A DNA stretch of 36,370 nt from a virus. Lineage: Duplodnaviria > Heunggongvirae > Uroviricota > Caudoviricetes. Location of the stretch: the IMG/VR virus record IMGVR_UViG_2617270997_000026; one strand, written 5' to 3'. How positions within the stretch are numbered: the first letter of the stretch is position 1; each line of letters begins with the position of its first letter. A program made the position numbers and the translations under genes. The notes beneath the pieces are model-generated. The model searched no databases, was not told the DNA's origin, and was given only the letters and a program-made list of their open reading frames with translations. Shown piece by piece: positions 1 to 36,370 of this stretch.

Positions 1-465
1 GGTTTGGGAGAAGGTTCTGCGTTGCCTGTTGGCGTACCAGTTCCTTGGCCTTCACCTACGCCGCCGACAGGCTGGCTGAAATGCAACGGGGCTGCTTTTT
101 CGGCTGAAGAATACCCGGAACTGGCAAAGGCTTACCCGACAAATAAATTGCCTGATTTACGCGGTGAATTTATTCGTGGCTGGGATGACGGACGTGGTGT
201 GGATGCCGGGCGACAATTATTATCTTCACAGGGGGATGCAATAAGAAATATTGAGGGATTCGCAGATGGCGGGATCGGCATGTCTTTTGATGCAATCAGA
301 GGGGCTTTTTACGATGCAGGAACACGATCAGCGACAATGGCGAATAACACAACTGCTATAGGCAAAACCGATGACCTTGGATTCGACGCCTCTCGTGTCG
401 TGCCAACAGCTAATGAAAACCGTCCACGTAACATCGCCTTTAATTATATTGTGAGGGCTGCATAA
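1..465 (+). CDS. Alternative tail-fibre C-terminal cassette (S'v-like), silent in this orientation, no own start
   Basis: Open frame from window edge. Codons 1-12 (G-L-G-E) match the LGLGE junction codons of the minus-strand fibre gene, so inversion fuses it in frame. Carries a PWP...GWLxCNG...LPDLRGxFIRGWD fibre-tip motif. Confidence 0.7.
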   Translation, partial: GLGEGSALPVGVPVPWPSPTPPTGWLKCNGAAFSAEEYPELAKAYPTNKLPDLRGEFIRGWDDGRGVDAGRQLLSSQGDAIRNIEGFADGGIGMSFDAIRGAFYDAGTRSATMANNTTAIGKTDDLGFDASRVVPTANENRPRNIAFNYIVRAA

Positions 466-1058
466 TGAAACCTGTTTTTGATGAAAATGGGATGGCTACA
501 GTGCCGGGTGATATGCGTTGTTATTATTATGATGCAGTAACGTCTGAATATACGGGCTGGTCTGATGAATATATTAATACTGGCGTAAGTATGCCCGCCT
601 GTTCCACTGGTATTGACCCGGGCGAATACATTCCGGGGCAAGTGGCAGTATTCACGGGTAAGGGATGGAGCCATGAAGAAGACCATCGCAATGAGACTGT
701 TTACTCAACAGAAAATGGCGCAGCTGTTACAGTGGATTATATCGGTGCCATCAAAGACGGTTATGTCACGCTTTCACCGTTAACGCCATACGATAAATGG
801 GATGGTGAGAAATGGGTGACGGATACCGAGGCACAGCATAGCGCCGCACTAGACGCGGCAGAAGTAAAGCGCCAGTCGCTGATTGATGCTGCAATGGCTT
901 CCATCAGTCTGATTCAGCTGAAATTACAGGCCGGGCGGAAGCTGACGCAGCCAGAAAACACCCGACTTAACGCTGTGCTGGATTACATTGACGCGGTGGC
1001 GGCAACAGATACCAGCACTGCGCCGGATGTCATCTGGCCTGAACTGCCGGAGGCGTAG
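465..1058 (+). CDS. Tail fibre assembly protein (U'-like), partner of the silent fibre cassette
   Basis: 197 aa immediately downstream of the alternative fibre C-terminus (ATGA overlap at 462-467); C-terminal DVIWPELPEA typical of tail-fibre assembly chaperones; convergent with the other copy. Confidence 0.75.
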   Translation: MKPVFDENGMATVPGDMRCYYYDAVTSEYTGWSDEYINTGVSMPACSTGIDPGEYIPGQVAVFTGKGWSHEEDHRNETVYSTENGAAVTVDYIGAIKDGYVTLSPLTPYDKWDGEKWVTDTEAQHSAALDAAEVKRQSLIDAAMASISLIQLKLQAGRKLTQPENTRLNAVLDYIDAVAATDTSTAPDVIWPELPEA

Positions 1059-1449
1059 GCCATTCAATATCTGGCGCACCGGAAGTATCGACCATTTCCA
1101 GTGCGTCCAGATAATCCAGCCACAAATTATATTGCGCCAGTTCCTCACCTTTCAGACGACCAATAGCCGCTTTACCAGGCCATTGTCTGCTGTTCATGTG
1201 CTCGTTGGCTTCATTAATAAGTTTTCCTTTTTTCAACTCTGCCAATGCAATAAGGTTTTCTTTTGATAAAGGTGGTTGCTCTGTCAAAACCGGATATCCC
1301 TCCTGATTGCTGACTATTTTCATGCCATTATCCTGACCATCCAGTAGTGACAGCCATTCATCCGTGGTTATCTCAACAGCATCTGAAGGTGCTTTATTTA
1401 AATCGGTAAAAAAACCATTTTCTTTTTGTGAATAGAAGTATCTGTCCAT
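1030..1449 (-). CDS. Tail fibre assembly protein (U-like), currently expressed partner
   Basis: 139 aa directly downstream of the fibre gene; C-terminal DIEWPTPP motif. Confidence 0.75.
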   Translation of the reverse strand: MDRYFYSQKENGFFTDLNKAPSDAVEITTDEWLSLLDGQDNGMKIVSNQEGYPVLTEQPPLSKENLIALAELKKGKLINEANEHMNSRQWPGKAAIGRLKGEELAQYNLWLDYLDALEMVDTSGAPDIEWPTPPAVQAR

Positions 1450-1452
1450 TTA

Positions 1453-3300
1453 TCAATCTCCAAAAGCAATCCAGTAAGCAAAAGGATTTACTCCTTGCTC
1501 AGTCACAGATGACATCAGGGAAAATTGCGATGGTGAAACAGGTAACGCTGCAAAACTAACCATTGTTGACACACCTGACCGTGCATTATCGTACGATGCA
1601 ACAACACAATAATTGGTATTGCTGAAAGATATCGGCAGGGGGATATTTACAGGTGAGCCTAATGGCCCTGATGCTGATATTCCCATTTGAATGATGGTTC
1701 CATCAGGCAATTTTCTCCAGCGATTAGAACTCGGATCTCTTTTCCAGGCTGACATATCCGGTATCTGATTTTCTCCTGTACCCACATCCCTTTTCGCCGC
1801 TTCTCCCAAACCAAGGTAATTGAGGACTTCTTTTATACTGCCCATAGCGATAATAGCGCGACCAATAGCTGTAAGGGTTGTCAGTGCTGCGCGGTCTGCT
1901 CCGGTAAAATAAGGCAACCGATCTGCTGCAGTGGCAAGTCCTGCCAGAGCAGTGAGCGTGGCATCTGCCGGTTGTTTTCCGTTTGCCAGATCGTATGCAG
2001 CCTTGACCGCTTTCGGTGTGGCGGCCAGTATTTCAGACGTGCTGTTGATGTCACTGCTCAATTGTACGGTGCCTTTTGCCGTCAGCGAGGCAGCAGGCAC
2101 TCCCGTTATCTGACGCCACGGGTGAGTGTGGCTGACGGGCGCCTTGCCGGCTGCAAGGTCGTATGCAGCCTTGACCGCCTTCGGCGTGGCAGCCTCAGTT
2201 TCTGATTGACTGTCCGTGGCGCTGCTCAGTTGTACGGTGCCTTTTGCCGTCAGTGAAGCCGCAGGCACTCCCGTTATCTGACTCCACGGGTGAGTGTGGC
2301 TGGCAGGCGCCTTGCCGGCTGCAAGGTCGTATGCAGCCTTGACCGCCTTCGGCGTGGCAGCCTCAGTTTCTGATTGACTGTCCGTGGCGCTGCTCAGTTG
2401 TACGGTGCCTTTTGCCGTCAGTGAAGCCGCAGGCACTCCCGTTATCTGACTCCACGGGTGAGTGTGGCTGGCAGGCGCCTTGCCGGCTGCAAGGTCGTAT
2501 GCAGCCTTGACCGCCTTCGGCGTGGCAGCCTCAGTTTCTGATTGACTGTCCGTGGCGCTGCTCAGTTGTACGGTGCCTTTTGCCGTCAGCGAGGCAGCAG
2601 GGACTCCCGTTATCTGACTCCACGGGTGAGTGTGGCTGACGGGCGCCTTGCCGGCTGCAAGGTCGTATGCAGCCTTGACCGCCTTCGGCGTGGCAGCCTC
2701 AGTTTCTGATTGACTGTCCGTGGCGCTGCTCAGTTGTACGGTGCCTTTTGCCGTCAGCGAGGCAGCAGGGACTCCCGTTATCTGACTCCACGGGTGAGTG
2801 TGGCTGACGGGCGCCTTGCCGGCTGCAAGGTCGTATGCAGCCTTGACCGCCTTCGGCGTGGCAGCCTCAGTTTCTGATTGACTGTCCGTGGCGCTGCTCA
2901 GTTGTACGGTGCCTTTTGCCGTCAGCGAGGCAGCAGGCACTCCCGTTATCTGACTCCACGGGTGAGTATGGCTGACGGGGGCCTTGCCGGCAGCCAGGTC
3001 ATATGCAGCCTTGACGGCCTTTGGTGTGGCGGCCAGCGTTTCAGAGGTGCTGTTGGTGGCACTGCTCAGTTGGGTGAACCCCTTAGCTGTCAGTGTCGCG
3101 TCCGGGTGGTTACGGGAACGTACGTGTTCAGCCAGTGACTGTGCGGCTTCCTCCGTTTTTTTCTTCAGCCATTTCGTCCTGTTTGCCAGTTGCCGGGGGG
3201 CTCGATTTGATATCCCGTCTGCACCACCCAGAACCGGATCTGATGTCTCCAGTTGATAGATATTTTCTTCCCACTTTTCTGTTTCATTCAGGTTTCCCAT
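1453..3300 (-). CDS. Tail fibre protein (constant N-terminus, repeat region, variable C-terminus)
   Basis: 615 aa from ATG at 3300 (track start 3306 is TTG); TGA of upstream gene 2 nt before. Seven SETxAATPKAVKAAYDLA-type fibre repeats, then conserved DATLTALAGL...RLPYFTG, then variable tip. Confidence 0.85.
   Translation of the reverse strand: MGNLNETEKWEENIYQLETSDPVLGGADGISNRAPRQLANRTKWLKKKTEEAAQSLAEHVRSRNHPDATLTAKGFTQLSSATNSTSETLAATPKAVKAAYDLAAGKAPVSHTHPWSQITGVPAASLTAKGTVQLSSATDSQSETEAATPKAVKAAYDLAAGKAPVSHTHPWSQITGVPAASLTAKGTVQLSSATDSQSETEAATPKAVKAAYDLAAGKAPVSHTHPWSQITGVPAASLTAKGTVQLSSATDSQSETEAATPKAVKAAYDLAAGKAPASHTHPWSQITGVPAASLTAKGTVQLSSATDSQSETEAATPKAVKAAYDLAAGKAPASHTHPWSQITGVPAASLTAKGTVQLSSATDSQSETEAATPKAVKAAYDLAAGKAPVSHTHPWRQITGVPAASLTAKGTVQLSSDINSTSEILAATPKAVKAAYDLANGKQPADATLTALAGLATAADRLPYFTGADRAALTTLTAIGRAIIAMGSIKEVLNYLGLGEAAKRDVGTGENQIPDMSAWKRDPSSNRWRKLPDGTIIQMGISASGPLGSPVNIPLPISFSNTNYCVVASYDNARSGVSTMVSFAALPVSPSQFSLMSSVTEQGVNPFAYWIAFGD
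1801..1826. other. hix/gix-like 26-bp crossover site for a serine DNA invertase, inside the tail fibre gene
   Basis: TTCTCCCAAACCAAGGTAATTGAGGA resembles hixL (TTCTTGAAAACCAAGGTTTTTGATAA) as I recall it, sharing the AAACCAAGGT core. It sits at the constant/variable junction of the fibre ORF; the partner half-site is at window start. Confidence 0.55.
1920..3095 (-). repeat. Seven tandem 168-bp (56-aa) in-frame repeats within the tail fibre gene; five central copies near-identical
   Basis: The string ttgtacggtgcc recurs at 2062, 2230, 2398, 2566 (spacing 168); further copies by period. Protein unit LTAKGTVQLSSATDSQSETEAATPKAVKAAYDLAAGKAPVSHTHPWSQITGVPAAS. Confidence 0.85.
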
Positions 3301-3302
3301 AA

Positions 3303-3881
3303 TCAACTGCTCCCGTGGTTATAACTGCCATCATGGATGGCGGTATTGTTATAGCGAATGGCCACAGACTGATACTCCAGGCTGGCCAGATGGCAGCGGG
3401 CCGGTGCAAATGCAGCCAGCGTCTGACGCAGCATCGCGGCCTGATCGTTAGTAATGGGCTGTTTCAGAATAACGCGATAAACTGCCCAGGCGGCTGCATC
3501 TCCATGAACAAACAGTCCGTTATAGCTGCGATTGCCGTCGTAACTGAGACGACCTGTGCCTTCAATCAGATCCACTTCACCAAAGCCAAAACGGCGGATA
3601 ACTTCCCGGATTGACCACGGCGTCCCTTTATACCGGTGCAGTTCGATGGCTGCTTTTATAAGCATGCGGCGAACATCGTCCGATTCCGCCAGCTCCCAGC
3701 CATCGCCAGACAGTGAGAACTGCTCGCCCAGCCATGGCAGCGCGGAACTGTCGACGATATCGACGAGAAAGACCATCAGTACGCTCAGGTCGATGTTATC
3801 CAGCCGTCCTGCCAGTCTTCCCAGCGTCCTGAGACTGATATCACCCTCAAGCGGTGGCGGGAGTTGTAATGGCTCAGTCAT
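3303..3881 (-). CDS. Baseplate/tail protein (P2 gpI-like, Mu gp48 position)
   Basis: 192 aa; ATG at 3881 verified; position between baseplate J-like gene and tail fibre; overlaps neighbours. Confidence 0.65.
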   Translation of the reverse strand: MTEPLQLPPPLEGDISLRTLGRLAGRLDNIDLSVLMVFLVDIVDSSALPWLGEQFSLSGDGWELAESDDVRRMLIKAAIELHRYKGTPWSIREVIRRFGFGEVDLIEGTGRLSYDGNRSYNGLFVHGDAAAWAVYRVILKQPITNDQAAMLRQTLAAFAPARCHLASLEYQSVAIRYNNTAIHDGSYNHGSS

Positions 3882-4977
3882 CAGACACTCCAGTCATGTT
3901 AAGAGTGATTGCCGTACAGTTTGCCCATTCGTTTTCTGCCACCACCCGCAGTGCCGGTGTCACCAGTTCAACCTGGTACACCCCGGAAACGGACAATGCA
4001 CTGATAATCTGGCTGGGGACAATATCGCGCCCCAGCGTGGCGGCACGTGATGCCACCCAGTTCTGTATGGCGCTGTTAGCGGCATCTTTTACAGACCTGG
4101 CATCCTGATCACGATAGATCGTAATCTTGGCTTCAATGGTGTAATCCACCTTCACTGGTGTTTTAGCCCGCACTGTATCAGTGAGTGGCCTGACTTTCTC
4201 ATCAGAGCAGAAACTCTCTACCAGCGTGAGAACACCGCCGTCCGGCAGACCGGTACTGAGCAGCGGATACAGATCTACGGTCCCGGGAACCGGGGAAAGC
4301 ACAGCAACATCGACAATGTTGGGATGGGCCTGCATGGCATGAAAGCGGTATGCGCCACGGCTTCCGGCATTGGTGAATGACTCCGGGGCCAGCCTGATAC
4401 GCTCCCGGAGCCTGTCATCGTCTTCCTGTTCTGAACCGCCGGAACTGGCCGTCAGATTGCTCACCAGCAGGTCGACGTTATCAATCTCATCGAGTAACTG
4501 ACTGACCTGCGCAGGTTGCCAGCCGTTACCAGCGGTACCGGGTTCGGTACAGGTGGACGTGACATTGACCAGCAGCAATCCGGCCTTCAGTACCACATCT
4601 GTATCGGTGGCAAAAATAACGCTGTCGGAAGCGCTGACGCGGGTGCCTGCCGGGATCAGCACATCAATGGCCAGTGCCTCATCTACGGAGAACTGGAGCG
4701 TGGTAGTGGCAGGCTGCGCGGCAAGACGGTATACACCGACCAGTTCACCGAGGTAATCAATCATCGGCTCACGGGCAAAGGCGACCAGATTCTGCTTTGC
4801 TGCCTCCTGTACCGCAACCCTGACCAGCATTTCGCGATAGGCCCACAGATCAATCAGCAGACGTTCTGCCTGTGCCGGGTACAGCGTTTTGCCGGTATCC
4901 GCTTCATACTTCGCAATCATTTCTGCCGTGATTTTGTCGGCATCGCGTTCAATAAAATCGGGTTCTGTCAGCGCCAT
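3874..4977 (-). CDS. Baseplate J-like protein (Mu gp47 / P2 gpJ position)
   Basis: 367 aa; ATG at 4977 verified; synteny within baseplate block. Confidence 0.7.
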   Translation of the reverse strand: MALTEPDFIERDADKITAEMIAKYEADTGKTLYPAQAERLLIDLWAYREMLVRVAVQEAAKQNLVAFAREPMIDYLGELVGVYRLAAQPATTTLQFSVDEALAIDVLIPAGTRVSASDSVIFATDTDVVLKAGLLLVNVTSTCTEPGTAGNGWQPAQVSQLLDEIDNVDLLVSNLTASSGGSEQEDDDRLRERIRLAPESFTNAGSRGAYRFHAMQAHPNIVDVAVLSPVPGTVDLYPLLSTGLPDGGVLTLVESFCSDEKVRPLTDTVRAKTPVKVDYTIEAKITIYRDQDARSVKDAANSAIQNWVASRAATLGRDIVPSQIISALSVSGVYQVELVTPALRVVAENEWANCTAITLNMTGVSDD

Positions 4978-5315
4978 AGCAGCTCCTGAGTCCGGGTCTG
5001 TCCGTCTGAGCCTTTCCAGCTCACCCGGAGCGTAAGATGTTCGCCGTCGACGGCGGGTTTAACTGACATAAGCTGGCAGCGGGGCTCCCAGCGCCGGATG
5101 GCATCGACGGATTCGCGCACCACATGCGGAATGGCCCGGTCTACAGGCCAGTCGATATAAAGATGCAGATTGCTGCCGAACTCCGGGCGATGCGGGTCGC
5201 TGCCGCGGGGAGTCCGCAGGATAATTTGAATCGCCTGCCGGATATCATCCAGCCCCCGGACAATTTCGCCGGGAGCCTGCAGGGTCGGTTGCCAGAATAC
5301 TGAGGTTGTTTTCAT
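4968..5315 (-). CDS. Baseplate wedge protein (gpW / gp25-like, Mu gp46 position)
   Basis: 115 aa; ATG at 5315 verified; size and position typical of GPW/gp25 family. Confidence 0.65.
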   Translation of the reverse strand: MKTTSVFWQPTLQAPGEIVRGLDDIRQAIQIILRTPRGSDPHRPEFGSNLHLYIDWPVDRAIPHVVRESVDAIRRWEPRCQLMSVKPAVDGEHLTLRVSWKGSDGQTRTQELLWR

Positions 5316-5369
5316 GGGGGCAGTATTGCCCCCGTGCGGGAACGCTGATATTAAAGGCGTTTAAAAAGC

Positions 5370-5966
5370 TCAGTGGGAGTGGTGGCTGGAGTTTTCGCCA
5401 TCAGACAACATACTGCCCGTGGCATGGGCATTCCCTTTAATCTCGATATTGCCATGGATGGTCGCGGTAACACCTTCACCACCAGAACCCGCCATGCCTC
5501 CTTCGTAAATCAGCTTACCCCTGACACGCAGATCTCCGGTAAGTTCGGTTTCCGGTGCGTCAATCGTGGCTTTCTGTGTTTTCAATACCACATCAGCACC
5601 ACACTCAATGACAATATGCTCAATGCCGCCCCGGATGGTCAGAGTGTGCGTCTTCCGGTTGTAGCTGTACTCTGCACCATCAGCAAACCGGGTTCCCCGG
5701 ATATTTTTGTCACTGAACGGTGGTTTATCGACGTCTGAATACACCGCGCCCAGAATAACACCATCCTCGCCGTTGGCATCGAGCAGCACCTCAACCTGCT
5801 CCCCCACGTCAGGGAGCCAGTAATCTTTGTTATCCTGGGTATTGCGCTGCAGCACGTTAAGCCAGTTTGTGCGCAGGTTATCGCATTCAGGCAGACGAAC
5901 GCGGGCCTGAACCCTGTCGGCATCAACGGCACTGACCGTACCGACCTGACGAGTGACACCAGTCAT
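5370..5966 (-). CDS. Baseplate spike/assembly protein (gpV-like, Mu gp45 position)
   Basis: 198 aa; ATG at 5966 verified; Gly-rich C-terminus (GGMAGSGGEG) typical of spike proteins. Confidence 0.7.
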   Translation of the reverse strand: MTGVTRQVGTVSAVDADRVQARVRLPECDNLRTNWLNVLQRNTQDNKDYWLPDVGEQVEVLLDANGEDGVILGAVYSDVDKPPFSDKNIRGTRFADGAEYSYNRKTHTLTIRGGIEHIVIECGADVVLKTQKATIDAPETELTGDLRVRGKLIYEGGMAGSGGEGVTATIHGNIEIKGNAHATGSMLSDGENSSHHSH

Positions 5967-7117
5967 TTTTTCTTCTCCTTAATCACCGTCGATGTACTGC
6001 CATCCGGGTGATAAACCGTGAGTTTCTGAGTTTTTTGTTTTTTCCCTCTTGTGACTGGCCCCCGTGCCACTTCCAGCTCTGTGGTGTAGCCGCTGTTACG
6101 GTCAAACGCATGGCGGGCAGTGGTTATGAGCCATGGCCCGGATAACTGCCCAAAACCCACCAGTTCAATTTTGTTGCCTGCTGTCAGTTGAGGTGTTCCC
6201 GTCAGCGTCAGGGAGCCGTTCTGCTGGTATTCGTTATGTCTGGCCAGTGCTGAATCCGCTTTAATCCGGGCACTGTCCGGGTCGCTGACGCGGCTGTTAA
6301 CTTTAAGTGAGTCAGCGCTGGTAACCTTACCACCTTTGAGCTTTTTGTCGCTTTCACGGGTACCACCATCAGCTTCGTAGACGATCAGTTTTTTACTGCT
6401 GCTTTTCTGGTGTTTTACCTTTGCAGATTTATAGACCCGGTTGATGGTGTCACGCAGGGAAAAGCGGGCCACATCCTGCGGTTTTAACTGCCTGACCGGC
6501 TCCTGACTGCGCAGTGTGGCCAGATGAGAAAAAATCAGCTGGTCACTGACCACTTTCACTGCATAACCATACTCGCTGGCCAGCCGGCGCAGAAAACCCA
6601 CGTCGGTTTCAGCATACTGGGTCACCCGGTCGATTCTGATGGACTCAATGCTGCCCACCAGTTTCAGTCGGTGCTTTCTGGCAATCCGCCCCGCAACAGC
6701 TGCCAGCGTGGTGTTCTCAAAACCACGACTGGTTTTAGTCCGCAGGGCACTGTTAACCGAGGTGGCCACCCCACGGATAGAAACAACGGAAGCGGGCGAA
6801 CTCACTTCGATCTCGTCTATAGAGAACGTACCGCAGGACAGCAGCTTCTCGCCCTGATAGCCCATTTTCAGCGTCAGCGTGTCACCCTTGCCCGGATACC
6901 ATTTATCCAGCCAGCGGCCATCGGTGTCGTCCAGCTCCACCTCAATGGTATCGGACTCATTTTTGATGTTATCGCTCCAGGTCACACGGGTGACATAAGG
7001 CGCGATATCAGAGGTGATGTTTTTCTGCAGATACCACAAAGTGAACACCGGTGTCAGCACATCGCTGACGCCGGTTAACGCTGATGTGACTTGCGCAGTG
7101 CTGTTTATCTCAGCCAT
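5963..7117 (-). CDS. Tail/baseplate hub protein (P2 gpD-like, Mu P/gp44 position)
   Basis: 384 aa; ATG at 7117 verified; synteny between DNA-circulation-like gene and spike. Confidence 0.7.
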   Translation of the reverse strand: MAEINSTAQVTSALTGVSDVLTPVFTLWYLQKNITSDIAPYVTRVTWSDNIKNESDTIEVELDDTDGRWLDKWYPGKGDTLTLKMGYQGEKLLSCGTFSIDEIEVSSPASVVSIRGVATSVNSALRTKTSRGFENTTLAAVAGRIARKHRLKLVGSIESIRIDRVTQYAETDVGFLRRLASEYGYAVKVVSDQLIFSHLATLRSQEPVRQLKPQDVARFSLRDTINRVYKSAKVKHQKSSSKKLIVYEADGGTRESDKKLKGGKVTSADSLKVNSRVSDPDSARIKADSALARHNEYQQNGSLTLTGTPQLTAGNKIELVGFGQLSGPWLITTARHAFDRNSGYTTELEVARGPVTRGKKQKTQKLTVYHPDGSTSTVIKEKKK

Positions 7118-7317
7118 GGGGCAATATCCTCTTCTGTACGGGCTTCTTCAGCCTCAATCACCGGGATCAGTAACAACAGCCCGGAGGGCAGCACCGGCGT
7201 GATGGCCACGTGCGGATTGGCGGCAATAATCCGGGGATAGCCCAGCGGGTCACCGTAGTACTGCCATGCCAGCGAATCCCAGCGCTCTCCGTCACGGGTA
7301 ACATGTTCAAGAAACAT
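7105..7317 (-). CDS. Tail protein X-like small protein
   Basis: About 70 aa from ATG at 7317 (7320 is GTG); motif ERWDSLAWQYYGD...IIAANP resembles P2 gpX-like proteins. Confidence 0.55.
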   Translation of the reverse strand: MFLEHVTRDGERWDSLAWQYYGDPLGYPRIIAANPHVAITPVLPSGLLLLIPVIEAEEARTEEDIAPWLR

Positions 7318-28053: not shown

Positions 28054-28103
28054 AATCTATCACATATAAAACAAACATCATTGCATCAACAAAGGAGACA
28101 ACA
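28054..28103. promoter_or_regulatory. Immunity switch region (divergent repressor/early promoters, operators expected)
   Basis: 50-bp AT-rich spacer (ctatcacatataaaacaaacatcattgcatcaac) between divergent repressor and ner-like starts. Confidence 0.45.
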
Positions 28104-28292: not shown

Positions 28293-28344
28293 ATTTTCCA
28301 CATATGCAACAGGTTATCACATATTGCAAAAATGGAAATGTGAC

Positions 28345-28653
28345 ATGAGTAAAGTAAATATTTCCAGTTCTGGGACCCGCATCCTACGTGTACTCAAAGC
28401 TCTACGCGGTCATGCTCTGAACGGTGTTTCTAACGGTGAACTGGCATCAGCCCTGGGGGAGTCCCCGGCGAATATCAATCGAGCACTTAATACCCTTATT
28501 GAAGAGGGACTGGCCATGAAATTAGAGAACGGACGTTTCGCACCGGGAATCCAGTTACTACAGATCGCCATGGCTCACAGTCACGAGATGGCGCGTGCAC
28601 AGGATCGTATTAACGAAATCAACCAACGAGTTATTTCAGGTAGTCGTTTGTAA
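28345..28653 (+). CDS. Putative winged-helix DNA-binding protein
   Basis: About 103 aa from ATG 28345 (track start 28282 overlaps ner-like gene); RILRVLKALRGHALNGVSNGELASALGESPANINRALNTLIEEGLA resembles IclR/MarR-type wHTH. Start uncertain. Confidence 0.45.
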   Translation: MSKVNISSSGTRILRVLKALRGHALNGVSNGELASALGESPANINRALNTLIEEGLAMKLENGRFAPGIQLLQIAMAHSHEMARAQDRINEINQRVISGSRL

Positions 28654-28663
28654 GGAGTAATCA

Positions 28664-29578
28664 ATGGGACGCACCAAATCACCCGTTAACACTGAACTGA
28701 ATGTTGAGGTTCCGCTGTCAGATAACATCAATGTCAATTTGAACGCTATGACACAGCATCGCATGGAAATTATGCAGCAGTTTGGTGATGGACTGCCTTA
28801 TGAACGTGATCGCATTGTTCACGAAGCACGTTTTTATATGGCGCAGAGTGCTGAATCTATGCTGGAAGCGGGTAAGCGGCTGATCATCTTAAAAGAAAAT
28901 GAGCCACACGGTGATTTTACAAACATTTTAGAAAATGAACTCGGACTTGCACCACAAGTTGCTCGCCGCATGATGCAAGCCAGTATGAAGTTTTTGGGAG
29001 AAGGTGATGAGCCAACAAAACGCTCAACGTTGAGCGTTTTGGGGAAAGCCAAACTGTACGACCTGATGGTTCTGGATAATGAAGAACTTGATGAATTGGC
29101 CGACGGCGGCACAGTTGCCGGCCTGACGCTTGACGACGTTGATCGCATGTCAGTACGTGAATTGCGTCAGGCCCTGCGCGAAGCGCGCGAAACCAACGCA
29201 GCACAACAGCGCGTACTCGCTGACAAAAATGAAAAAATAGACTCACTCTCCACCAGACTGGAGAAGAAATCCCGTATTCAGTCGCCTGAGCCTGATGAAG
29301 AGGTTAAGAAGCTGCGGGCGGAAGTGACAGCATTAGCGGTTGAGGCGGAATCTGCTATCGCCGTTCGACTGTCCAGCGCTTTTGAGACGCTGTGCGCATA
29401 TTGTGCTGAAAACATGATTGATACCCCCAGAGACTTCATGGCAGGCCTGGTCTGTCAACTGGAAAGCACAGCGCGTAGCCTGCGCTCCACATTTGACCTG
29501 CCGGATGAGCCAACAGGCAATGCCGCGCCTTCATGGCTGACTGAGCCGACGCCACAGATTAACGGGCTGGAGGCATAA
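28664..29578 (+). CDS. Conserved early protein, function unknown (possibly DUF3102-like)
   Basis: 304 aa; AAGGAG RBS; helical and acidic; immediately upstream of transposase. Confidence 0.55.
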   Translation: MGRTKSPVNTELNVEVPLSDNINVNLNAMTQHRMEIMQQFGDGLPYERDRIVHEARFYMAQSAESMLEAGKRLIILKENEPHGDFTNILENELGLAPQVARRMMQASMKFLGEGDEPTKRSTLSVLGKAKLYDLMVLDNEELDELADGGTVAGLTLDDVDRMSVRELRQALREARETNAAQQRVLADKNEKIDSLSTRLEKKSRIQSPEPDEEVKKLRAEVTALAVEAESAIAVRLSSAFETLCAYCAENMIDTPRDFMAGLVCQLESTARSLRSTFDLPDEPTGNAAPSWLTEPTPQINGLEA

Positions 29579-29581
29579 CCA

Positions 29582-31351
29582 ATGAATGCTGCCCTGACTG
29601 AACGACTGGTTTATGTCGCCCGCGCGGCACGTGACGCGGGGCATGGTAAACGCGGTGCAATATACGACGCTGCCTGTGCTGAACTTGGCATGTCCCGCGC
29701 CACTCTGCTGCGCAGGCTGAAGGAGGTCTCTGTGACTGATAAACGCAAAAAACGCGCTGATGCCGGACGCAGCGCCCTGACCCGCGACGAAGCCGCGCTG
29801 ATATCTGCCACACTGCGTGAGGCCACCCGCAAGAACGGTAAACGCCTCTATTCCATCGCAGATGCAGTGGAAACCCTGCGGGCTAACGGCTTTATCACCG
29901 CAGGCAGAACAGATGAAACCACCGGTGAGTTTTTCCCGTTGTCTGAAGATGCCATCAGCCGTGCTCTGCGTAACTATGGCCTGCACCCGGAACAACTGGA
30001 TGCTCCTGCACCGCATACCGAAGTGGCCAGTCTGCACCCCAATCATGTCTGGCAGATTGACGCCTCACTCTGCACGCTTTACTACCTGAGCAATGGACAT
30101 AAAGGGCTGCAGGTGATGGACAGCGCGAAGTTCTACAAGAACAAGCCCGCTAACCTTGCCCGTATCGCCAGTGACCGCGTGTGGAGTTACGAGATTACCG
30201 ACCATGCCAGCGGCTGGATTTACGTTGAGTATGTGACGGGCGCGGAATCAGGTGAGAACCTGTGTTCTGTGCTTATCAACGCCATGCAGGAGCGTGGCGG
30301 CGCAGACGTGCTGCACGGCGTGCCAAAAATACTCTATCTCGACCCCGGCTCGGCAAACACCGCGGGTATGACGAAAAACATGTGCCGCTCACTGGGCATC
30401 GACCTGATAGCGCACAAGCCGCATAACGCCCGCGCCACCGGACAGGTGGAAAAGGCGCGGGACATTATCGAACGCAAGCTGGAGCCGGGTCTGAAGTTCC
30501 GGCCGGTTCACAGTCTGGAAGAACTCAATGCGCTGGCCGCGAAATGGCGCAGCCACTTTAACGCCACGGCTGTTCACAGCCGCCACGGTAAAACCCGCAC
30601 GGATATCTGGCTGAAGATTACTGCTGAGCAGCTGAAAAAAGCGCCTTCCGTTGAGGTATGTCGTGAACTGGCTGTGGCGGCACCAGAACTCCGCAAAGTC
30701 ACGCCAAAACTTCGTGTCTCGTTCCGGGGCACTGAATTTGACGTATCAACGGTACCGGGCGTACTGGTCGGTGAAAAACTGATGATTACCCGTAACCCGT
30801 GGCGCAGCGATGTGGCACAGGTGGTTCTGACCGGTGAGGACGGCCACGAGACGTTCTTCCTGGTCGAAGAAGTCAGAAAGAACGAGTTTGGCTTTGCTGA
30901 AGGCGCGGCGGTATTTGGCGAAAGTTACAAAGCCCTGCCGGAAACCCCGGCGCAGATGGCGGCAAAAGAAACCGAAGCGCTGGTCACCGGTACAGACAAC
31001 GCCGCAGATGCAGCTGCCGCACGCAAGGCGAAGGCGCTGCCGTTCGGCGGGCGGCTTGACCCATATAAACATATTGATGACGCCACACTTCCGGCCTATA
31101 TGCCGAAGCGAGGTCAGGCCTCTGACGTACGCGGGCCGCGCACTGAACAACGTCCCATGACTCATGTGGAGGCCGCGAAAGCCCTGCGCGATAAGTTCAG
31201 CGCCGACGGCCTTACCTGGACGCCGGAACATTACCGCCAGTTAACGGCACAGTATCCGGACGGCGTACCGGAAGCCGCACTGGATGAAGTCATGGCCACG
31301 CTGACCACGCCGGCCCGCAGCAGCGTTATCAGCATTGTTAACGGCAACTGA
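29582..31351 (+). CDS. Transposase, DDE / retroviral-integrase-fold (Mu A functional equivalent)
   Basis: 589 aa; GGAGG RBS; catalytic triad candidates HVWQIDAS, ILYLDPGSANT, TGQVEKARD with typical rve spacing; followed by AAA+ helper gene. Confidence 0.8.
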   Translation: MNAALTERLVYVARAARDAGHGKRGAIYDAACAELGMSRATLLRRLKEVSVTDKRKKRADAGRSALTRDEAALISATLREATRKNGKRLYSIADAVETLRANGFITAGRTDETTGEFFPLSEDAISRALRNYGLHPEQLDAPAPHTEVASLHPNHVWQIDASLCTLYYLSNGHKGLQVMDSAKFYKNKPANLARIASDRVWSYEITDHASGWIYVEYVTGAESGENLCSVLINAMQERGGADVLHGVPKILYLDPGSANTAGMTKNMCRSLGIDLIAHKPHNARATGQVEKARDIIERKLEPGLKFRPVHSLEELNALAAKWRSHFNATAVHSRHGKTRTDIWLKITAEQLKKAPSVEVCRELAVAAPELRKVTPKLRVSFRGTEFDVSTVPGVLVGEKLMITRNPWRSDVAQVVLTGEDGHETFFLVEEVRKNEFGFAEGAAVFGESYKALPETPAQMAAKETEALVTGTDNAADAAAARKAKALPFGGRLDPYKHIDDATLPAYMPKRGQASDVRGPRTEQRPMTHVEAAKALRDKFSADGLTWTPEHYRQLTAQYPDGVPEAALDEVMATLTTPARSSVISIVNGN

Positions 31352-31361
31352 GGAGGGATAC

Positions 31362-32528
31362 ATGCTGGTACTGAAGCAGCAACTGAAAGAGGCCCGTATT
31401 CCACAGGCGGTGGTGGCGAGAGCTGTCGATGTTTCTGAGGCCACGCTGGCCCAGATTGTGAATCATAACGCGTGGCCCCGCACCAGCCCCGGAGAAGTGC
31501 GCCGGCGTCTTGCGTCCTGGCTGGAAAGTCAGGGGATTGATACAACGAAGAGTTTTGATGCTGTACAGGGCGCGGCCACGCCCCGTACAGCGGGTACCAC
31601 AGATAAAACGAGCCTCAGTGAGGAAGAGAATATGTTACTCAAAAAACAGGTGTTATTTCCAGCAACCAAAAAAGCGTTTGGTCTTTTCCGTGACCCGTTC
31701 GCCGACGAAGCCATGCAGGGTTCTGATGATGTGTTCACCACTCCGGACATTCGCTACGTGCGTGAGGCGCTGTACCAGACAGCCCGTCATGGTGGGTTTA
31801 TGGCCGTCATCGGTGAGTCCGGTGCGGGTAAATCCACGCTGCGCCGTGACCTGACTGAACGTATCAACCGCGAGAATGCGCCGGTGATTGTTATCGAGCC
31901 ATACATCATCGCTATGGAAGACAACGATGTGAAAGGGAAAACCCTGAAGGCAGCAGCGATTGCCGAAGCCATTATCAGTACCATCGCACCACTGGAAAGC
32001 ATCAGACGCAGTCAGGACGCCCGCTTTCGCCAGCTGCATCGCGTCCTGAAAGACAGCAGCCAGGCGGGGTTCAGCCACGTTCTGGTGATTGAGGAGGCCC
32101 ACAGTCTGCCCATTCCGACACTGAAACACCTCAAACGCTTTTTTGAGCTGGAGTCCGGTTTCAAAAAACTGCTGTCCATCGTACTGATTGGCCAGCCGGA
32201 ACTGGCGACAAAACTGTCTGAACGCAATATGGAAGTCCGTGAAGTCGTTCAGCGCTGTGAGGTGGTCGAACTTCTGCCTCTGGACAATAACCTTGAAGAG
32301 TTTCTGACGTTCAAACTGCAACGGGCCGGTAAACAACTGACGGACATTATGGACGCCAGCGCAGTGGATGCCATACGTGCCCGCCTGAGCAATCCGGGAA
32401 GTCATCGTAAAAATATGGTCAGCCTGCTGTATCCGCTGGCCGTCAGTAACCTGGTAATAGCCGCCATGAATCTGGCCGCTGAAATCGGGGTTCCACAGGT
32501 CAACGCTGACGTTGTCAAAGGGGTTTAA
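31362..32528 (+). CDS. Transposition helper ATPase (MuB-like AAA+ protein)
   Basis: 388 aa from ATG 31362 after GAGGAGGG; N-terminal HTH-like segment, Walker A GESGAGKST, Walker B VLVIEEAH; directly downstream of transposase. Confidence 0.75.
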   Translation: MLVLKQQLKEARIPQAVVARAVDVSEATLAQIVNHNAWPRTSPGEVRRRLASWLESQGIDTTKSFDAVQGAATPRTAGTTDKTSLSEEENMLLKKQVLFPATKKAFGLFRDPFADEAMQGSDDVFTTPDIRYVREALYQTARHGGFMAVIGESGAGKSTLRRDLTERINRENAPVIVIEPYIIAMEDNDVKGKTLKAAAIAEAIISTIAPLESIRRSQDARFRQLHRVLKDSSQAGFSHVLVIEEAHSLPIPTLKHLKRFFELESGFKKLLSIVLIGQPELATKLSERNMEVREVVQRCEVVELLPLDNNLEEFLTFKLQRAGKQLTDIMDASAVDAIRARLSNPGSHRKNMVSLLYPLAVSNLVIAAMNLAAEIGVPQVNADVVKGV

Positions 32529-32530
32529 TA

Positions 32531-32800
32531 ATGAAATCCACCACAGGTATCAACCAGCAAATCAGCAAAGTGCAGTCAGCCATTATGGCGCTTAAGGCGA
32601 CGAACACGGATGTACAAAGCATCACCATCAGGGGTAACAAACCTGTCATCCGCGTTTCCCGGAGTGCGCATTGCATGCGCATGCTTGAGCAGGGAAAGGC
32701 CTGTTATCTGTATACCGGACATGACCACAGGGGATATTTCCGTCAGGGCGTTTTCGAACTGCACGGCTGTCGCGTCGTGTGGCCGGAATCTTTGTGGTAA
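32531..32800 (+). CDS. Hypothetical early protein (Mu kil position)
   Basis: 89 aa immediately after B-like gene; no recognisable motif. Confidence 0.5.
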   Translation: MKSTTGINQQISKVQSAIMALKATNTDVQSITIRGNKPVIRVSRSAHCMRMLEQGKACYLYTGHDHRGYFRQGVFELHGCRVVWPESLW

Positions 32801-32827
32801 TCAGCACAACTGGAGAAATCATAAAAA

Positions 32828-33358
32828 ATGGCAAAAAGTACAAAAGGTGCAAAACGTATCAAGGCCGCAGCAGCACTCTGGGTGCCGGGGACACGTGAAG
32901 AGGTCATTGAGGGAATCAGACTACTCGGTGACGCACAACGTGAACTGGTCAGGGCTGAAACAGAAATGAATGACGCCATTGGCGATATCACCGCACGTTA
33001 TGCCCCGCTCACCGAGAGCCTGAAAAAACGCATGGCCGAACTGCAGTCCGGTATTCAGACATGGTGTGAGGCACACCGTGATGAACTGACCGGCAACGGG
33101 AAGGTGAAGTTCGCTAACCTCACCACCGGCGAGGTGCAGTGGCGAAACCGTCCGCCATCAGTCAGTATCCGTGGGGCGGATAATGTTATTGAATTACTGA
33201 GACGTCTGGGGCTTGAGCGCTTTATTCGTGTAAAAGAGGAAATAAATAAAGACGCTATCCTGAATGAAAAAGAGGCCGTGAAAAATATTCCCGGTATTTC
33301 CATTAAAAGCGACATTGAGGATTTTTCAATAATTCCTTTTGAGCAGGATGTGCAGTAA
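32828..33358 (+). CDS. gam: Host-nuclease inhibitor Gam (Mu Gam-like, Ku-like DNA end binding)
   Basis: 176 aa; MAKSTKGAKRIKAAAA... N-terminus and C-terminal SIRG..LGLERFIR.KEEINKDAIL...IEDFSIIPFEQ closely match Mu Gam as I remember it. Confidence 0.8.
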   Translation: MAKSTKGAKRIKAAAALWVPGTREEVIEGIRLLGDAQRELVRAETEMNDAIGDITARYAPLTESLKKRMAELQSGIQTWCEAHRDELTGNGKVKFANLTTGEVQWRNRPPSVSIRGADNVIELLRRLGLERFIRVKEEINKDAILNEKEAVKNIPGISIKSDIEDFSIIPFEQDVQ

Positions 33359-33455
33359 ACACACCACGTTAATTATTTAATAAAAACATTTTCTTTTTTA
33401 TTCCGGCGTCAGCGCCGCGGGCTTCTGCACGCCGGAAACAGAGGAGAATTAAATC

Positions 33456-33650
33456 ATGATATTTAAATGTATTCAGTGCGAGAGGGATATAACAGCCCTG
33501 CGTTTTCACAGCGCCATCGCCGTGATGTCCGGTAAATACCACATCCCTGCGGTACGCGTCACCCTGGTCTGCCCGTACTGCAGCCAGCATTTTTCGGCAG
33601 ACGTGCCCGTCATGGAATTCTCCCGCCCTGACAGGGAGGACTCGCAATGA
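33456..33650 (+). CDS. Small zinc-ribbon protein
   Basis: 64 aa; GAGGAGAA RBS; CxxC (CIQC) and CxxC (CPYC) pairs. Confidence 0.5.
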   Translation: MIFKCIQCERDITALRFHSAIAVMSGKYHIPAVRVTLVCPYCSQHFSADVPVMEFSRPDREDSQ

Positions 33651-33919
33651 TTACCCCACAGGAAGCACGACAGCGCACCCGAACCCTTGTTGAACACTAT
33701 GTCAACGAGTGTGAATGCCGCGACCTCACCGATGTGAAGCACGTCCTGACGGCGCTAATCAGCATGACCGCTCAGGCCATTGTGGCGACCAACGGAAAGG
33801 CGGCTGCCCTGCAGGTACTGGTGAACACACTCACCCACACGGCAGAGCATGAGGTGCCGTACCGGATGGAAACCACTGCAGAAGGCGGCCTGCACATCAC
33901 CGTCAGCCGGAAGCACTGA
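33647..33919 (+). CDS. Hypothetical early protein
   Basis: 90 aa; ATGA overlap with upstream gene. Confidence 0.45.
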   Translation: MITPQEARQRTRTLVEHYVNECECRDLTDVKHVLTALISMTAQAIVATNGKAAALQVLVNTLTHTAEHEVPYRMETTAEGGLHITVSRKH

Positions 33920-33928
33920 GGGCGCGGC

Positions 33929-34225
33929 ATGACACGGAACACCATACTCACCCGCACCGCCCTCTACCGTCTGGCCCTGCAGCGTTTCGGGCCGGACGCA
34001 CAGGCCCTGAAACTGACAGAAGAGGCCGCTGAACTGGCGGCCAGTGCTGCCCGCAATCTGAACGGACAGGGCAGCGAAAGTGACCTCGCGGCAGAGCTGG
34101 CAGACGTGGAAATCATGACAGAGCAATTGCGCCTTCAGGGGATGGACCGGCTGATTGACTTCCACAAACAGAAAAAACTGGAACGTCTGGCTGCACGACT
34201 GGGCGTGATTTACACGAACGAGTAA
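33929..34225 (+). CDS. MazG-like all-alpha nucleotide pyrophosphohydrolase family protein (putative)
   Basis: 98 aa; GAGGG RBS; motifs KLTEEAAELAASAAR and AAELADVEIMTEQL match EExxE / ExxD metal-binding helices of small MazG/HisE-type NTP-PPases. Confidence 0.5.
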   Translation: MTRNTILTRTALYRLALQRFGPDAQALKLTEEAAELAASAARNLNGQGSESDLAAELADVEIMTEQLRLQGMDRLIDFHKQKKLERLAARLGVIYTNE

Positions 34226-34239
34226 CCGGGAGGCATTCA

Positions 34240-34455
34240 ATGGCTGACATACTCAGGGAAATCACCGCATGGACACTGATTCTTACTGGCCTGGCGACAT
34301 GCCTCAGTGCGGGGGCAGCCCTGGCTGCCCTGCTGATGCACATAACAACACAGTGGTTATGGGAAAAGCTTAAAGCAGCATACAGCCTGAAAGAGCTGTC
34401 CGACGCTGTCCGGGCATGGAAACGGCAGAAAAATACCGGAGATACAGAACAATGA
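34240..34455 (+). CDS. Small membrane protein
   Basis: 71 aa; GGGAGG RBS; one TM helix ITAWTLILTGLATCLSAGAALAALLM. Confidence 0.45.
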   Translation: MADILREITAWTLILTGLATCLSAGAALAALLMHITTQWLWEKLKAAYSLKELSDAVRAWKRQKNTGDTEQ

Positions 34456-35135
34456 CAGACCAGAATAAACACATTGAGAAACTGAAAAAGTTGCTGGCGC
34501 TGGCCGCATCCGGCAACCCGCACGAGGCCGCTCTGGCACTGCGCCGAGCCCGTAAACTGATGGATGTTCACGGCATCACACATTCCGACATTGCTATGAG
34601 TGATATTGATGAAACCATCAGTCATTACTGGCCGACAGGCAGTCTCCGTCCACCGCGCTACATGCTGGGCCTGATGAACATCATCCGCGAGGCATTTGGT
34701 GTTAACTCCATCATTCACCCCGGCACGCATCCGTCTGTGGGGTTCTACGGTAACCGGGAACGAGCGGCACTGGCTGCGTACACCTGGGAAGTGCTGGTCC
34801 GCCAACTGAAAAAGGCGCGTCAGCAGTATATCAGCGCACAGAACAAAAGAATAAAAAACGCCACCCGTACCAGCCGTGGAAACCAGTTTGCTGAAGGCTG
34901 GGTACTGGCCGTTATCAGTGAAATACAGTCCTTTGCCCTGACCGATGATGAGCGTGAACTGATGCAACAGTGGCTGGAACATAAATACCCGCAAACGCAA
35001 ACCACCAGGGCGCGTAAACCGGGAAGAAGCCGCAATGGCGACGCCTCGCGCTATGCGGGGTTTCGTGAAGGGCAGAACGTCAGACTGCACCGCCCGGTCA
35101 GTGGGCAGGAACAACAGAAACTGGAGGCCAGATGA
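34452..35135 (+). CDS. Hypothetical early protein (DUF2786-like N-terminus)
   Basis: 227 aa from ATG 34452 (ATGA overlap with upstream stop); N-terminal IEKLKKLLALAASGNPHEAALALRRARKLM. Confidence 0.5.
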   Translation: MTDQNKHIEKLKKLLALAASGNPHEAALALRRARKLMDVHGITHSDIAMSDIDETISHYWPTGSLRPPRYMLGLMNIIREAFGVNSIIHPGTHPSVGFYGNRERAALAAYTWEVLVRQLKKARQQYISAQNKRIKNATRTSRGNQFAEGWVLAVISEIQSFALTDDERELMQQWLEHKYPQTQTTRARKPGRSRNGDASRYAGFREGQNVRLHRPVSGQEQQKLEAR

Positions 35136-35362
35136 TTACGCTATCAGGTAACAGCCGGAAATTAAAAGCCTGCCGAATATCTGCCAGATACCTTTTTGCC
35201 CGCGCCTTTTTTAAGAACGTCAGGCCGGGGATCACAATTGGTGTTATTGCCGGACGCGAACAGGTTGAAAAATACATGTCAGGTGCATGGTGGAATAACG
35301 ACCCTGTCATTGCTGCCCGTAATATTCATATCAGTTGGGGGGATATTCAGAATGACGGCTGA
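35132..35362 (+). CDS. Hypothetical small protein
   Basis: 76 aa; ATGA overlap with upstream gene. Confidence 0.4.
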   Translation: MITLSGNSRKLKACRISARYLFARAFFKNVRPGITIGVIAGREQVEKYMSGAWWNNDPVIAARNIHISWGDIQNDG

Positions 35363-35567
35363 ATCTGTTGTATGTGCCCTGTTCTGGTATTGTTTTGTCG
35401 GTTGGTGTACTGCTGAACTGCACCGCCGTTCAGGGTTTTATTCACGTTACAGTGGTGCCGGCTACTGGATTAGCTGGTCGGTGATGTTCCTGTGCTGGCC
35501 TGTGGCGCTTCCTTTATATGTCGATTATATCGGTGGCGCAGGTAAAAGGAGCAACGATGATGACTAA
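35352..35567 (+). CDS. Small two-TM membrane protein
   Basis: 71 aa from ATG 35352 after GGGGGG; hydrophobic segments VVCALFWYCFVGWCTA and YWISWSVMFLCWPVALPLYV. Confidence 0.4.
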   Translation: MTAESVVCALFWYCFVGWCTAELHRRSGFYSRYSGAGYWISWSVMFLCWPVALPLYVDYIGGAGKRSNDDD

Positions 35568-36009
35568 ACAACGTCTTATCCAGCTCATTCATATTGCCCG
35601 TAATGAACTGGGTATGGATGAAGACACCTACCGCCAGATGTTACAGGGGCTGACCGGTAAAGCCTCAACCAAAGGAATGGATACCACACAACTAAACTGC
35701 GTGCTGGAATCCATGAAAAGGAAAGGCTTTCGCGTTAAGCCTGCCGGAAAAGCCAGCTCCGGTTTACCGCTGGATAACCATCCGCAGTCCAGGAAAATCC
35801 GTGCGCTATGGCTTGAAATGGCTGCTGCCGGCATTGTTCGTGACCGTTCAGAAAATGCATTAGCGCGGTGGATCAAGCGGGAAACGGGCATCAGCGCCCT
35901 GCGCTGGCTCAATACTGAACAGGCAAGCAGTGTTATTGAGAAACTGAAGAAGTGGCAGCACAGAGCTGCGGGAGTAAAACATGAGCGACCTGAATCAGTT
36001 TCGAAGTAA
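35557..36009 (+). CDS. GemA-like protein (Mu gp16 family)
   Basis: 150 aa from ATG 35557 after AAGGAG; N-terminus MMTKQRLIQLIHIARNELGMDEDTYRQML typical of GemA-like proteins; directly upstream of Mor-like gene as in Mu. Confidence 0.6.
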   Translation: MMTKQRLIQLIHIARNELGMDEDTYRQMLQGLTGKASTKGMDTTQLNCVLESMKRKGFRVKPAGKASSGLPLDNHPQSRKIRALWLEMAAAGIVRDRSENALARWIKRETGISALRWLNTEQASSVIEKLKKWQHRAAGVKHERPESVSK

Positions 36010-36370
36010 AGGGCCGGAACTCCTGGTGGAACTGGCACAGCATACCTCTGAGACCGTTCGCGAGATTATTGATATTGAGCCCGCAATTGCCGACCAGATT
36101 GGTCAGGCCGTCGCGAACCGCATGATGCAGGTCTGGGGCGGGCAAAACGTTTATTTCCCGATGGGCATGGTATGGAAGGTCAGTCAGCGCGACCGGGAAA
36201 TCTTCAGGGAGTTTAACGGACGTAACCACCATGAACTGGCCCGCAAATTTGGTGTTTCGCTTCAGTGGGTCTACAGCGTGGTTAAGCGGGTAAGAAAAGA
36301 AGAACTGGATCGGATGCAGGGCAAGCTATTTGCTGATGAACCCGATGTAGATACGGAGAAAAAAGAGTAA
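35981..36370 (+). CDS. mor: Mor/C-family transcription activator (middle-operon regulator-like)
   Basis: 129 aa, complete; GGAG RBS; C-terminal HTH-like ELARKFGVSLQWVYSVVKRVRK; size and position match Mu Mor. Confidence 0.7.
   Translation: MSDLNQFRSKGPELLVELAQHTSETVREIIDIEPAIADQIGQAVANRMMQVWGGQNVYFPMGMVWKVSQRDREIFREFNGRNHHELARKFGVSLQWVYSVVKRVRKEELDRMQGKLFADEPDVDTEKKE

Follow-up and report, generated by a model that had tools for sequence, protein, structure and literature searches.

A BcepMu-type transposable prophage of Escherichia coli with divergent early and late arms and an invertible tail-fiber module

Phage BcepMu carries its genes in two clusters, has terminal CA dinucleotides, and has no fiber inversion system (PMC2771037). 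Its transposase is not related to MuA, being instead distantly related to Tn552-IS1604 (Lavigne et al., PMC2771037). TG...CA termini typify BcepMu-related elements that have an Rve core (KS10 paper, PMC2628397), relatives from enteric bacteria have been given the name SalMu (PMC3417384), and a 36.8-kb region with BcepMu as its best PHASTER match is listed in E. coli genome papers (PMC10955171). Here, we describe the IMG/VR virus record IMGVR_UViG_2617270997_000026, a stretch of 36,370 nucleotides that we call the window and that is almost certainly a single transposable temperate myophage of the BcepMu type, integrated into the chromosome of an E. coli host. Its divergent arms and non-MuA transposase are published hallmarks of BcepMu-like phages (PMC2771037), and the element is of an already known, ordinary kind that has been deposited as a phage before. 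No evidence contradicting the BcepMu-type identification was found.

The composition of the window was assessed by a Pfam search, a listing of its open reading frames (ORFs), and a tblastn comparison of 52 ORFs with BcepMu and Mu. Matches to BcepMu were obtained for 36 of these ORFs, in the same order and relative orientation and at 31–76% amino acid (aa) identity, while eight matched Mu, the eighth being a 35-aa stretch of the fiber. Identities of individual proteins to the two phages were as follows:

Transposase: BcepMu 69%, Mu none
AAA+ partner: BcepMu 59%, Mu none
Mor: BcepMu 54% (gp01), Mu 31%
GemA: BcepMu 44% (gp02), Mu 36%
Gam: BcepMu absent, Mu 62%
TerL: BcepMu 63%, Mu 49%
F: BcepMu 62%, Mu 48%
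Portal: BcepMu 58%, Mu 29%
G: BcepMu 45%, Mu 29%

An earlier reading of this DNA, made from the sequence only, had proposed a BcepMu-like backbone to which Mu-like early accessory genes (Gam, GemA, and Mor) were added. The backbone holds, and all three proteins do belong to Mu-named Pfam families. However, since BcepMu has both GemA and Mor, and with higher identity than Mu, these two are part of the BcepMu backbone. By looks, Gam (Phage_Mu_Gam, 1e-40) would be the sole Mu-type addition.

Elements of this kind are common. The right 12 kb of the window is present in 643 of 5,426 complete E. coli genomes (~12%, about one in eight), with 100% identical stretches in several complete genomes, and some E. 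coli genomes hold two or three copies of the element. RefSeq prophages of the same kind are found in E. coli IAI39, CE10, SF-173, and others. Escherichia phage PhiKM (PQ738613), listed in the database under Bcepmuvirus, has 97.7% nucleotide identity, with 90% of a 24-kb query covered. The family spans >2,300 homolog clusters from Enterobacterales and Burkholderia. To place the window, we used a reference full copy from strain 025542-1 (L001). The full element is 36.65 kb, and relative to the reference copy, the window is without 714 bp at its left and 161 bp at its right.

Both junctions of the element were located in six E. coli genomes. Each of the six copies has the ends TGATGCGCC…TCTAATCA (TGATG...AATCA, of the TG...CA type); the left tip of the phage reads TGATGCGCCGCG and the right tip TCTAATCA, and the six flanking bases are exactly repeated outside. 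The insertion sites are:

025542-1: in ygcP, 6-bp duplication GATAGC
IAI39: in lom of a lambdoid prophage, duplication ATGTGC
SF-173: in gpJ of a lambdoid prophage, duplication CCCCAC
FDAARGOS_1077: between flhA and rayT, duplication CCCCGG
TUM1586: between lpdA and a DUF3300 gene, duplication GAAAGT
EBJ003: in gcd, duplication GTCACG

The TG...CA termini that had been anticipated are present, but the target duplication is a perfect 6 bp at all six sites and not the expected 5 bp, which is the length in Mu. The element thus uses DDE transposition to insert at practically any site, with a 6-bp duplication. In addition, both ends contain the motif G[ACT]GATAWWT twice, at distances of 12 and 35 nt from the tip. 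Its four end positions are identical in BcepMu, and in each of the two genomes these positions account for four of its five occurrences. Three of the six mapped insertions sit inside other prophages or beside mobile genes. The PhiKM record contains a host-like “ABC transporter permease” fragment between its Mor end and the fiber gene, which is no more than suggestive of random host DNA at the ends of packaged virion DNA. In L001, ygcP (5125–5676, “glycerol-3-phosphate responsive antiterminator”) is a truncated host gene that RefSeq annotates as a complete coding sequence. Its annotated start codon lies 48 bp inside the left end of the phage (L001 5629–5676), so the annotated product is a phage–host chimera.

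Two observations qualify our identification. By blastn, BcepMu shares only 30% coverage at 68% identity with the window, or ~21% overall similarity, which is below the 70% nucleotide similarity across the genome to the type species that is the genus threshold in ICTV guidance. Because of this low similarity, the genus assignment is loose, and the element would fall outside Bcepmuvirus in the strict sense, a taxonomic detail that brings no new biology. The second observation is that IAI39 has internal stops in its TerS, gpW, and 93-aa genes, which would fit a domesticated or defective prophage that is inherited vertically, without transposition or particles. Similarly, an IS3 element in CE10 and a group II intron in AR_0013 both lie inside the right 12 kb, and PHASTER rated such a region “questionable” (PMC10955171). 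However, we consider it unlikely that the copy in the window is of this type. Each of the 52 ORFs that were checked in the window is open, six genomes show perfect ends and duplications, insertion sites vary by strain, and the element can be present in more than one copy per genome. The PhiKM record was submitted as a phage, with a uropathogenic E. coli host, and Bcepmuvirus phages are among induced gut prophages (PMC12629997).

The transposase bears on whether the element could instead be a true Mu relative. It has 589 aa, and its sole Pfam match is rve (E 1e-8), in line with the rve-type DDE core noted earlier. Residues D160, D254, and E290 have DD35E spacing, are invariant in 28 transposase homologs, and align with the catalytic residues of retroviral integrases. 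NCBIfam gave weak matches to IS481 (1.4e-18) and IS21 (4.5e-11), both well short of the family cut-offs. The protein has 68.7% aa identity to BcepMu gp09 and ~57% to transposase A of Pseudomonas phage B3. Between this protein and MuA, whose catalytic triad is D269/D336/E392, BLASTP returned an E-value of 0.48 and profile comparison (hhalign) a probability of 0.2%, and there was no MuA-type Pfam match. Going by these positions, MuA has ~110 more residues ahead of its first catalytic Asp, in agreement with the earlier remark on size. Because the two proteins cannot be aligned, the earlier remark that the MuA N-terminal region is lacking is a statement about size and not about homology. The DUF3102 protein encoded upstream was considered as a split-off MuA N-terminal domain and rejected, as it showed similarity neither to MuA nor to a solved structure. 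An AlphaFold2 model of the transposase (28 homologs) was poor, with a predicted local distance difference test score (pLDDT) of 60 and a catalytic core below 50. Foldseek with this poor model returned TnsB, IstA, and retroviral integrases at TM-scores of 0.1–0.2, a weak hint only. The adjacent AAA+ protein (59% aa to BcepMu gp08) belongs to phrog_296, “DNA transposition protein,” and is the transposition partner, the functional counterpart of MuB.

It is very improbable, then, that the element belongs to the Muvirus lineage, with an inverted late region and a shortened MuA as its transposase. Such an origin would account for Gam at 62%, TerL and F at ~49%, an invertase 77% identical to Gin, and the Mu-named families of GemA and Mor. 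However, neither the MuA comparisons nor the DD35E spacing, set against the MuA triad, agree with it, and the same is true of the 6-bp duplication and of eight ORF matches to Mu against 36 to BcepMu. There is also no room for com/mom, as the invertase stop in L001 is ~80 bp from the tip. The features that define Muvirus, namely a MuA-type transposase, all genes rightward after c, and a 5-bp duplication, are absent.

The gene layout follows BcepMu. The early arm comprises 16 ORFs on the plus strand (28104 to 36370), and the late arm runs on the minus strand from the holin start at 25292 down to the tail fiber (1453–3306), in the order lysis, packaging and head, tail. This is the divergence that the sequence-only reading had described, and its account of Mu, with c leftward and the rest rightward, is confirmed by the Mu record. 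The diverging arms, a GC content of 41–46% at 26–29 kb, the P2-like tail, and the Mu-named early genes might be taken to mean that a P2-like minus-strand remnant and a Mu-like plus-strand remnant meet at 25.3–28.1 kb, but there is next to no chance of this, as 36.65 kb are enclosed by a single pair of ends, flanked by matching 6-bp duplications, at six unrelated loci, with the host cleanly split, that interval is free of phage ends and host genes in every copy examined, and BcepMu as a free phage has the identical two-arm layout. The element is therefore single, and as a BcepMu-type phage, it has the following features, given with their strand and main evidence:

1–1817: invertible tail-fiber segment, flipped relative to 025542-1
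4–1058, plus: silent fiber C-terminal fragment (4–465) and assembly chaperone (465–1058, 197 aa); ORFs
1030–3306, minus: tail fiber (1453–3306, 617 aa) and chaperone (1030–1449, 139 aa); Pfam
3303–14236, minus: P2-type contractile tail and baseplate module; Pfam and BcepMu collinearity
14226–22931, minus: Mu-type head and packaging module; Pfam and BcepMu collinearity
17845–17883, minus: late-promoter-like motif upstream of the protease/scaffold gene; motif scan
22931–25292, minus: lysis cassette and two small conserved genes; Pfam
25312–25350, minus: late-promoter-like motif upstream of the holin gene, at the start of the late arm; motif scan
25423–25899, plus: truncated P-loop gene, 158 aa; phrog_3787
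25918–25935, minus: GC-rich hairpin and T-run directly after the 193-aa gene; consensus scan only
25937–26518, minus: 193-aa membrane protein, cargo; phrog_12025
26609–27595, minus: 328-aa single-pass membrane protein; profile search and model
27592–28053, minus: lysogeny repressor, 153 aa; HTH_31/HTH_3 Pfam
28028–28056, plus: candidate early promoter TTGACA-17-CATAAT; consensus scan
28104–29578, plus: first early genes, for a 62-aa helix-turn-helix (HTH) protein, a 102-aa IclR-type winged HTH protein, and a 304-aa DUF3102 protein; Pfam
29582–31351, plus: rve-type transposase, 589 aa; Pfam rve
31362–32528, plus: AAA+ (AAA_22, “ExeA-like”) protein, 388 aa; AAA_22 3.6e-20, phrog_296
32531–35567, plus: variable early region; Pfam
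35560–36370, plus: GemA (35560–36009) and Mor-family late activator (35981–36370); Pfam GemA 1.3e-40, Mor 1.3e-43

The tail module encodes gpI, gpJ, gpW, gpV, gpD, gpX, a gpU-like protein, the tape measure (8201–11413), an assembly chaperone, the tube (12288–12809), and the sheath (12809–14236). Its Pfam matches include Baseplate_J, Phage_GPD, PhageMin_Tail, Phage_tube, and Phage_sheath, and it is collinear with BcepMu gp39–51 at 31–76% aa identity. The head module (44–67% aa to BcepMu gp27–37) encodes Gp37, Gp36, a DUF2190 protein, the capsid protein (15737–16690), the protease/scaffold (16705–17820), G, F, the portal (19298–20794), TerL (20794–22389), and TerS (Mu Gp27, 22386–22931), with Pfam matches to Phage_Mu_Gp27, Portal_Mu, Phage_Mu_F, Phage_Mu_Gp36, and Gp37. 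The lysis region (32–61% aa to BcepMu gp21–26) holds the holin (24942–25292, Holin_2-3, 1e-41), an SLT transglycosylase (24199–24939, SLT, 2e-14), an Rz-like protein (23565–24215), a membrane protein, and a 103-aa ORF. At the start of the early arm, the 62-aa HTH protein occupies the Ner/Cro position and is followed by the winged HTH (28345–28653) and DUF3102 (28664–29578) proteins; the three have 45%, 34%, and 41% aa identity to BcepMu gp16, gp12, and gp10, respectively. The variable early region comprises Gam (32828–33358), a DUF2786/DUF7168 protein (34452–35135), and eight small ORFs for which tblastn found no BcepMu counterpart.

It is chiefly in the fiber module that the element departs from BcepMu itself. 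Window positions 1–1817 are the reverse complement of L001 6343–8159 at 99.9% identity, with collinear flanks. In L001, 18-nt inverted repeats at 6343–6360 and 8147–8164 agree at 17 of 18 positions; in the window, the left crossover site GGTTTGGGAGAAG is split by position 1, and the right one, CTTCTCCCAAACCAAGGT, lies at 1800–1817. Both orientations occur in nature, and the segment inverts. A serine invertase of 190 aa, 77% identical to Mu Gin, adjoins the segment in L001 (5707–6279) and lies outside the window; an invertase to the left of position 1 had been predicted along with the invertible module itself, and full copies carry it. Overall, the segment encodes two alternative fiber tips and two chaperones. 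In the orientation seen here, the expressed fiber has an N-terminus matching BcepMu gp52, seven Phage_fiber_2 repeats, and a Gp53-like C-terminus, and is accompanied by the 139-aa chaperone. The silent tip and the 197-aa chaperone are on the plus strand, disconnected from the fiber gene. In the orientation of L001, this same DNA forms the expressed fiber end and a “tail fiber assembly protein.” The same module with other contents is present in KP12_2, IAI39, and SF-173.

The first base of the window is the center of the left crossover site, and its last base is the last base of the Mor stop codon. In L001, the 714 bp missing at the left hold the left half of the crossover site, the serine invertase, and the end of the phage. 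The left limit has the appearance of a break in the assembly, caused by an invertible segment in mixed orientation. The arrangement of the first 4 kb had no exact match among the complete E. coli genomes in the collection. Tandem repeats are found in two of the late genes: a 168-bp unit repeated 6.5 times in the fiber gene (1984–3072) and a 261-bp unit repeated three times in the tape-measure gene (8802–9597). The tape measure has 1070 aa here and in SF-173 and 983 aa, one unit shorter, in 025542-1 and IAI39. As the copy number of this repeat varies among strains, tails of different length are predicted.

With regard to regulation, the candidate early promoter agrees with the consensus at 11 of 12 positions and overlaps the 5' end of the repressor gene. 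Repeats of TATCACATAT occur at 28058 and 28315, but as an operator-like repeat, its count is not above chance. For the late arm, the motif TTAAAATC-N23-CTGTCTCC has two matches in the window against 0.00 expected, both on the late strand and at the two largest gaps in the arm; the one upstream of the protease/scaffold gene is in the same place as the Mu P_I promoter. The motif is kept at both syntenic sites in PhiKM and Klebsiella KP12_2, although the sequence around it varies. At the two corresponding sites, BcepMu has TAAAGCCGATTAAAAGACC, and these are the only two TTAAAA on its late strand. A third late promoter at 5316–5354 was considered, but it has three mismatches, overlaps a GC hairpin, and is not convincing. 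No second protein of the Mor/C family was found among the ORFs scanned. Given this and the shared late motif, the simplest reading is that Mor activates the opposite arm directly.

A life cycle can be proposed from these elements. In the lysogen, the leftward HTH repressor would shut off the early promoter at 28.03 kb, which points rightward. Since this layout places the late arm downstream of the repressor, insulation would be needed, and the putative hairpin terminator (25918–25935) together with the convergent P-loop gene probably keeps transcription of the repressor operon from reaching the lysis genes. Upon induction, the early operon would supply the Ner-like regulator, the rve-type transposase and its AAA+ partner for presumed replicative transposition, then Gam for end protection, GemA, and finally Mor. 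Mor may then act in trans at the two putative late promoters, upstream of the holin and of the protease/scaffold gene, which would drive lysis, the Mu-type headful packaging and head genes, and the P2-type contractile tail. The Gin-type invertase at the far left end would flip the 1.8-kb segment, swapping the fiber tip and chaperone.

The low-GC interval 25293–27591 was complete in only 96 of 607 matching genomes, and 25.3–27.6 kb is a swappable cargo slot. A Dam-type methylase occupies this slot in PhiKM, KP12_2, and the relatives from Serratia and Yersinia. The 158-aa P-loop protein covers positions 1–157 of the 242 in phrog_3787, is labeled “ABC transporter ATPase” in RefSeq, and has a 243-aa form in PhiKM; its gene looks like a remnant of cargo replacement. 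The 193-aa protein has a glycine-zipper segment and a C-terminal transmembrane helix, and its family, phrog_12025, has no assigned function. The possibility that the cargo is a known defense system was also considered and set aside, as there was no meaningful PADLOC match and the 328-aa and 193-aa proteins had no Pfam match.

Next to this slot, the repressor (39% aa to BcepMu gp17) is transcribed leftward like Mu c, and its gene overlaps by 4 bp that of the 328-aa protein. The latter consists of a Flk-like, possibly ORF6C-like helical cytoplasmic domain, one transmembrane helix, and a periplasmic alpha/beta domain. Residues 19–147 match the NCBI model for Flk, a flagella biosynthesis regulator, with an E-value of 2.9e-12, far below the cut-off. 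The structural model was good, with two domains above pLDDT 90, and had no fold match in the PDB; one weak viral match was an ORF6C-domain protein (E 8.6e-4, TM-score 0.32). For the periplasmic C-domain, Klebsiella KP12_2 has a homologous lipoprotein in the equivalent position (E 5e-17). The family is small, with 24 clusters, all from Enterobacterales, and the 328-aa protein has no significant similarity to BcepMu gp18.

The C-terminal tail of the repressor, RAEQVIHGDVLGNVIKGNVTI, has an echo, KQTVNGDVGNVVSGDVTI, at the N-terminus of the 328-aa protein (BLASTP E 3e-4). The shared motif is HGDVLGNVIKGNVTI in the repressor tail and NGDVGNVVSGDVTI in the 328-aa protein. The pattern GxxGNVVSGxVxIxxY is invariant in 18 family members and disordered in the otherwise confident model. 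The pair, with the same tail, is found in Serratia and Yersinia relatives (L014 2582–3981 and L015 2519–3984); in PhiKM and KP12_2, both members are replaced together. A similar echo in BcepMu gp17/gp18 is visible by eye but not significant by BLASTP. That the two proteins form an undescribed two-part lysogeny switch is a speculative idea to which we give little credence; if true, a partner anchored in the membrane could bind the repressor tail or compete with it and in this way link a signal from the envelope to induction or immunity.

As a discovery, the element has little value, being a common, catalogued prophage whose architecture is the textbook difference between BcepMu and Mu. However, its ends, 6-bp duplication, and end repeats give precise prophage boundaries in ~12% of complete E. 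coli genomes. The conserved late motif is a testable target for a single Mor-family activator, and the slot between holin and repressor is worth screening for exclusion or defense genes.

Among known systems, BcepMu (NC_005882; Summer et al. 2004, summarized in PMC2771037) shares with the element the divergent clusters with a lysogeny switch between them, an rve-type transposase with an ExeA-like AAA+ partner, an early arm that ends with GemA and Mor, and the holin/SLT endolysin/Rz cassette. The Mu-type TerS, TerL, portal, F, and G, the P2-type tail, the TG...CA ends, the end repeats, and the late-promoter motif at the same two places are likewise common to both. BcepMu differs in having neither Gam nor fiber inversion, with an acyltransferase at its right end instead, in its variable early genes (HU, SSB-like, and DUF3164), and in the gene that follows the repressor. 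PhiKM and the RefSeq prophages have the same genes, ends, and layout. They differ from the window in the copy number of the fiber and tape-measure repeats and in the orientation or content of the invertible segment, and PhiKM carries a Dam methylase and a full-length P-loop gene between holin and repressor.

Mu (NC_000929) is likewise a transposable temperate myophage with a leftward repressor, a rightward early operon, Gam, GemA, and Mor, Mu-type packaging and head genes, a Gin-driven invertible fiber segment, and TG...CA ends. Mu differs in that its MuA and MuB are unrelated in sequence to the proteins of the phage described here, all its late genes follow the early ones on the same strand, and its duplication is 5 bp. 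It also has a separate C activator, com/mom, and a tail that is specific to Mu and not of the P2 type. Pseudomonas phage B3 and B3-like phages (JBD25, H72, and others) have a transposase of the same family, but B3 is a siphovirus (PMC2771037), whereas the phage here encodes a sheath, a tube, and a P2-type baseplate. A 101-nt stretch of gam (33062–33162) has 83% nucleotide identity to gam of H72, the only nucleotide match outside enterobacterial relatives. Lastly, the rve transposases of IS481, IS21 (IstA), Tn552, and Tn7 or CRISPR-associated transposons (TnsB) share the DD35E core and an adjacent AAA+ ATPase, and a 6-bp duplication is typical of IS481/Tn552-type elements. The protein described here differs from them in a C-terminal extension of ~300 residues, and the element that it serves is a 37-kb phage, not an insertion sequence.

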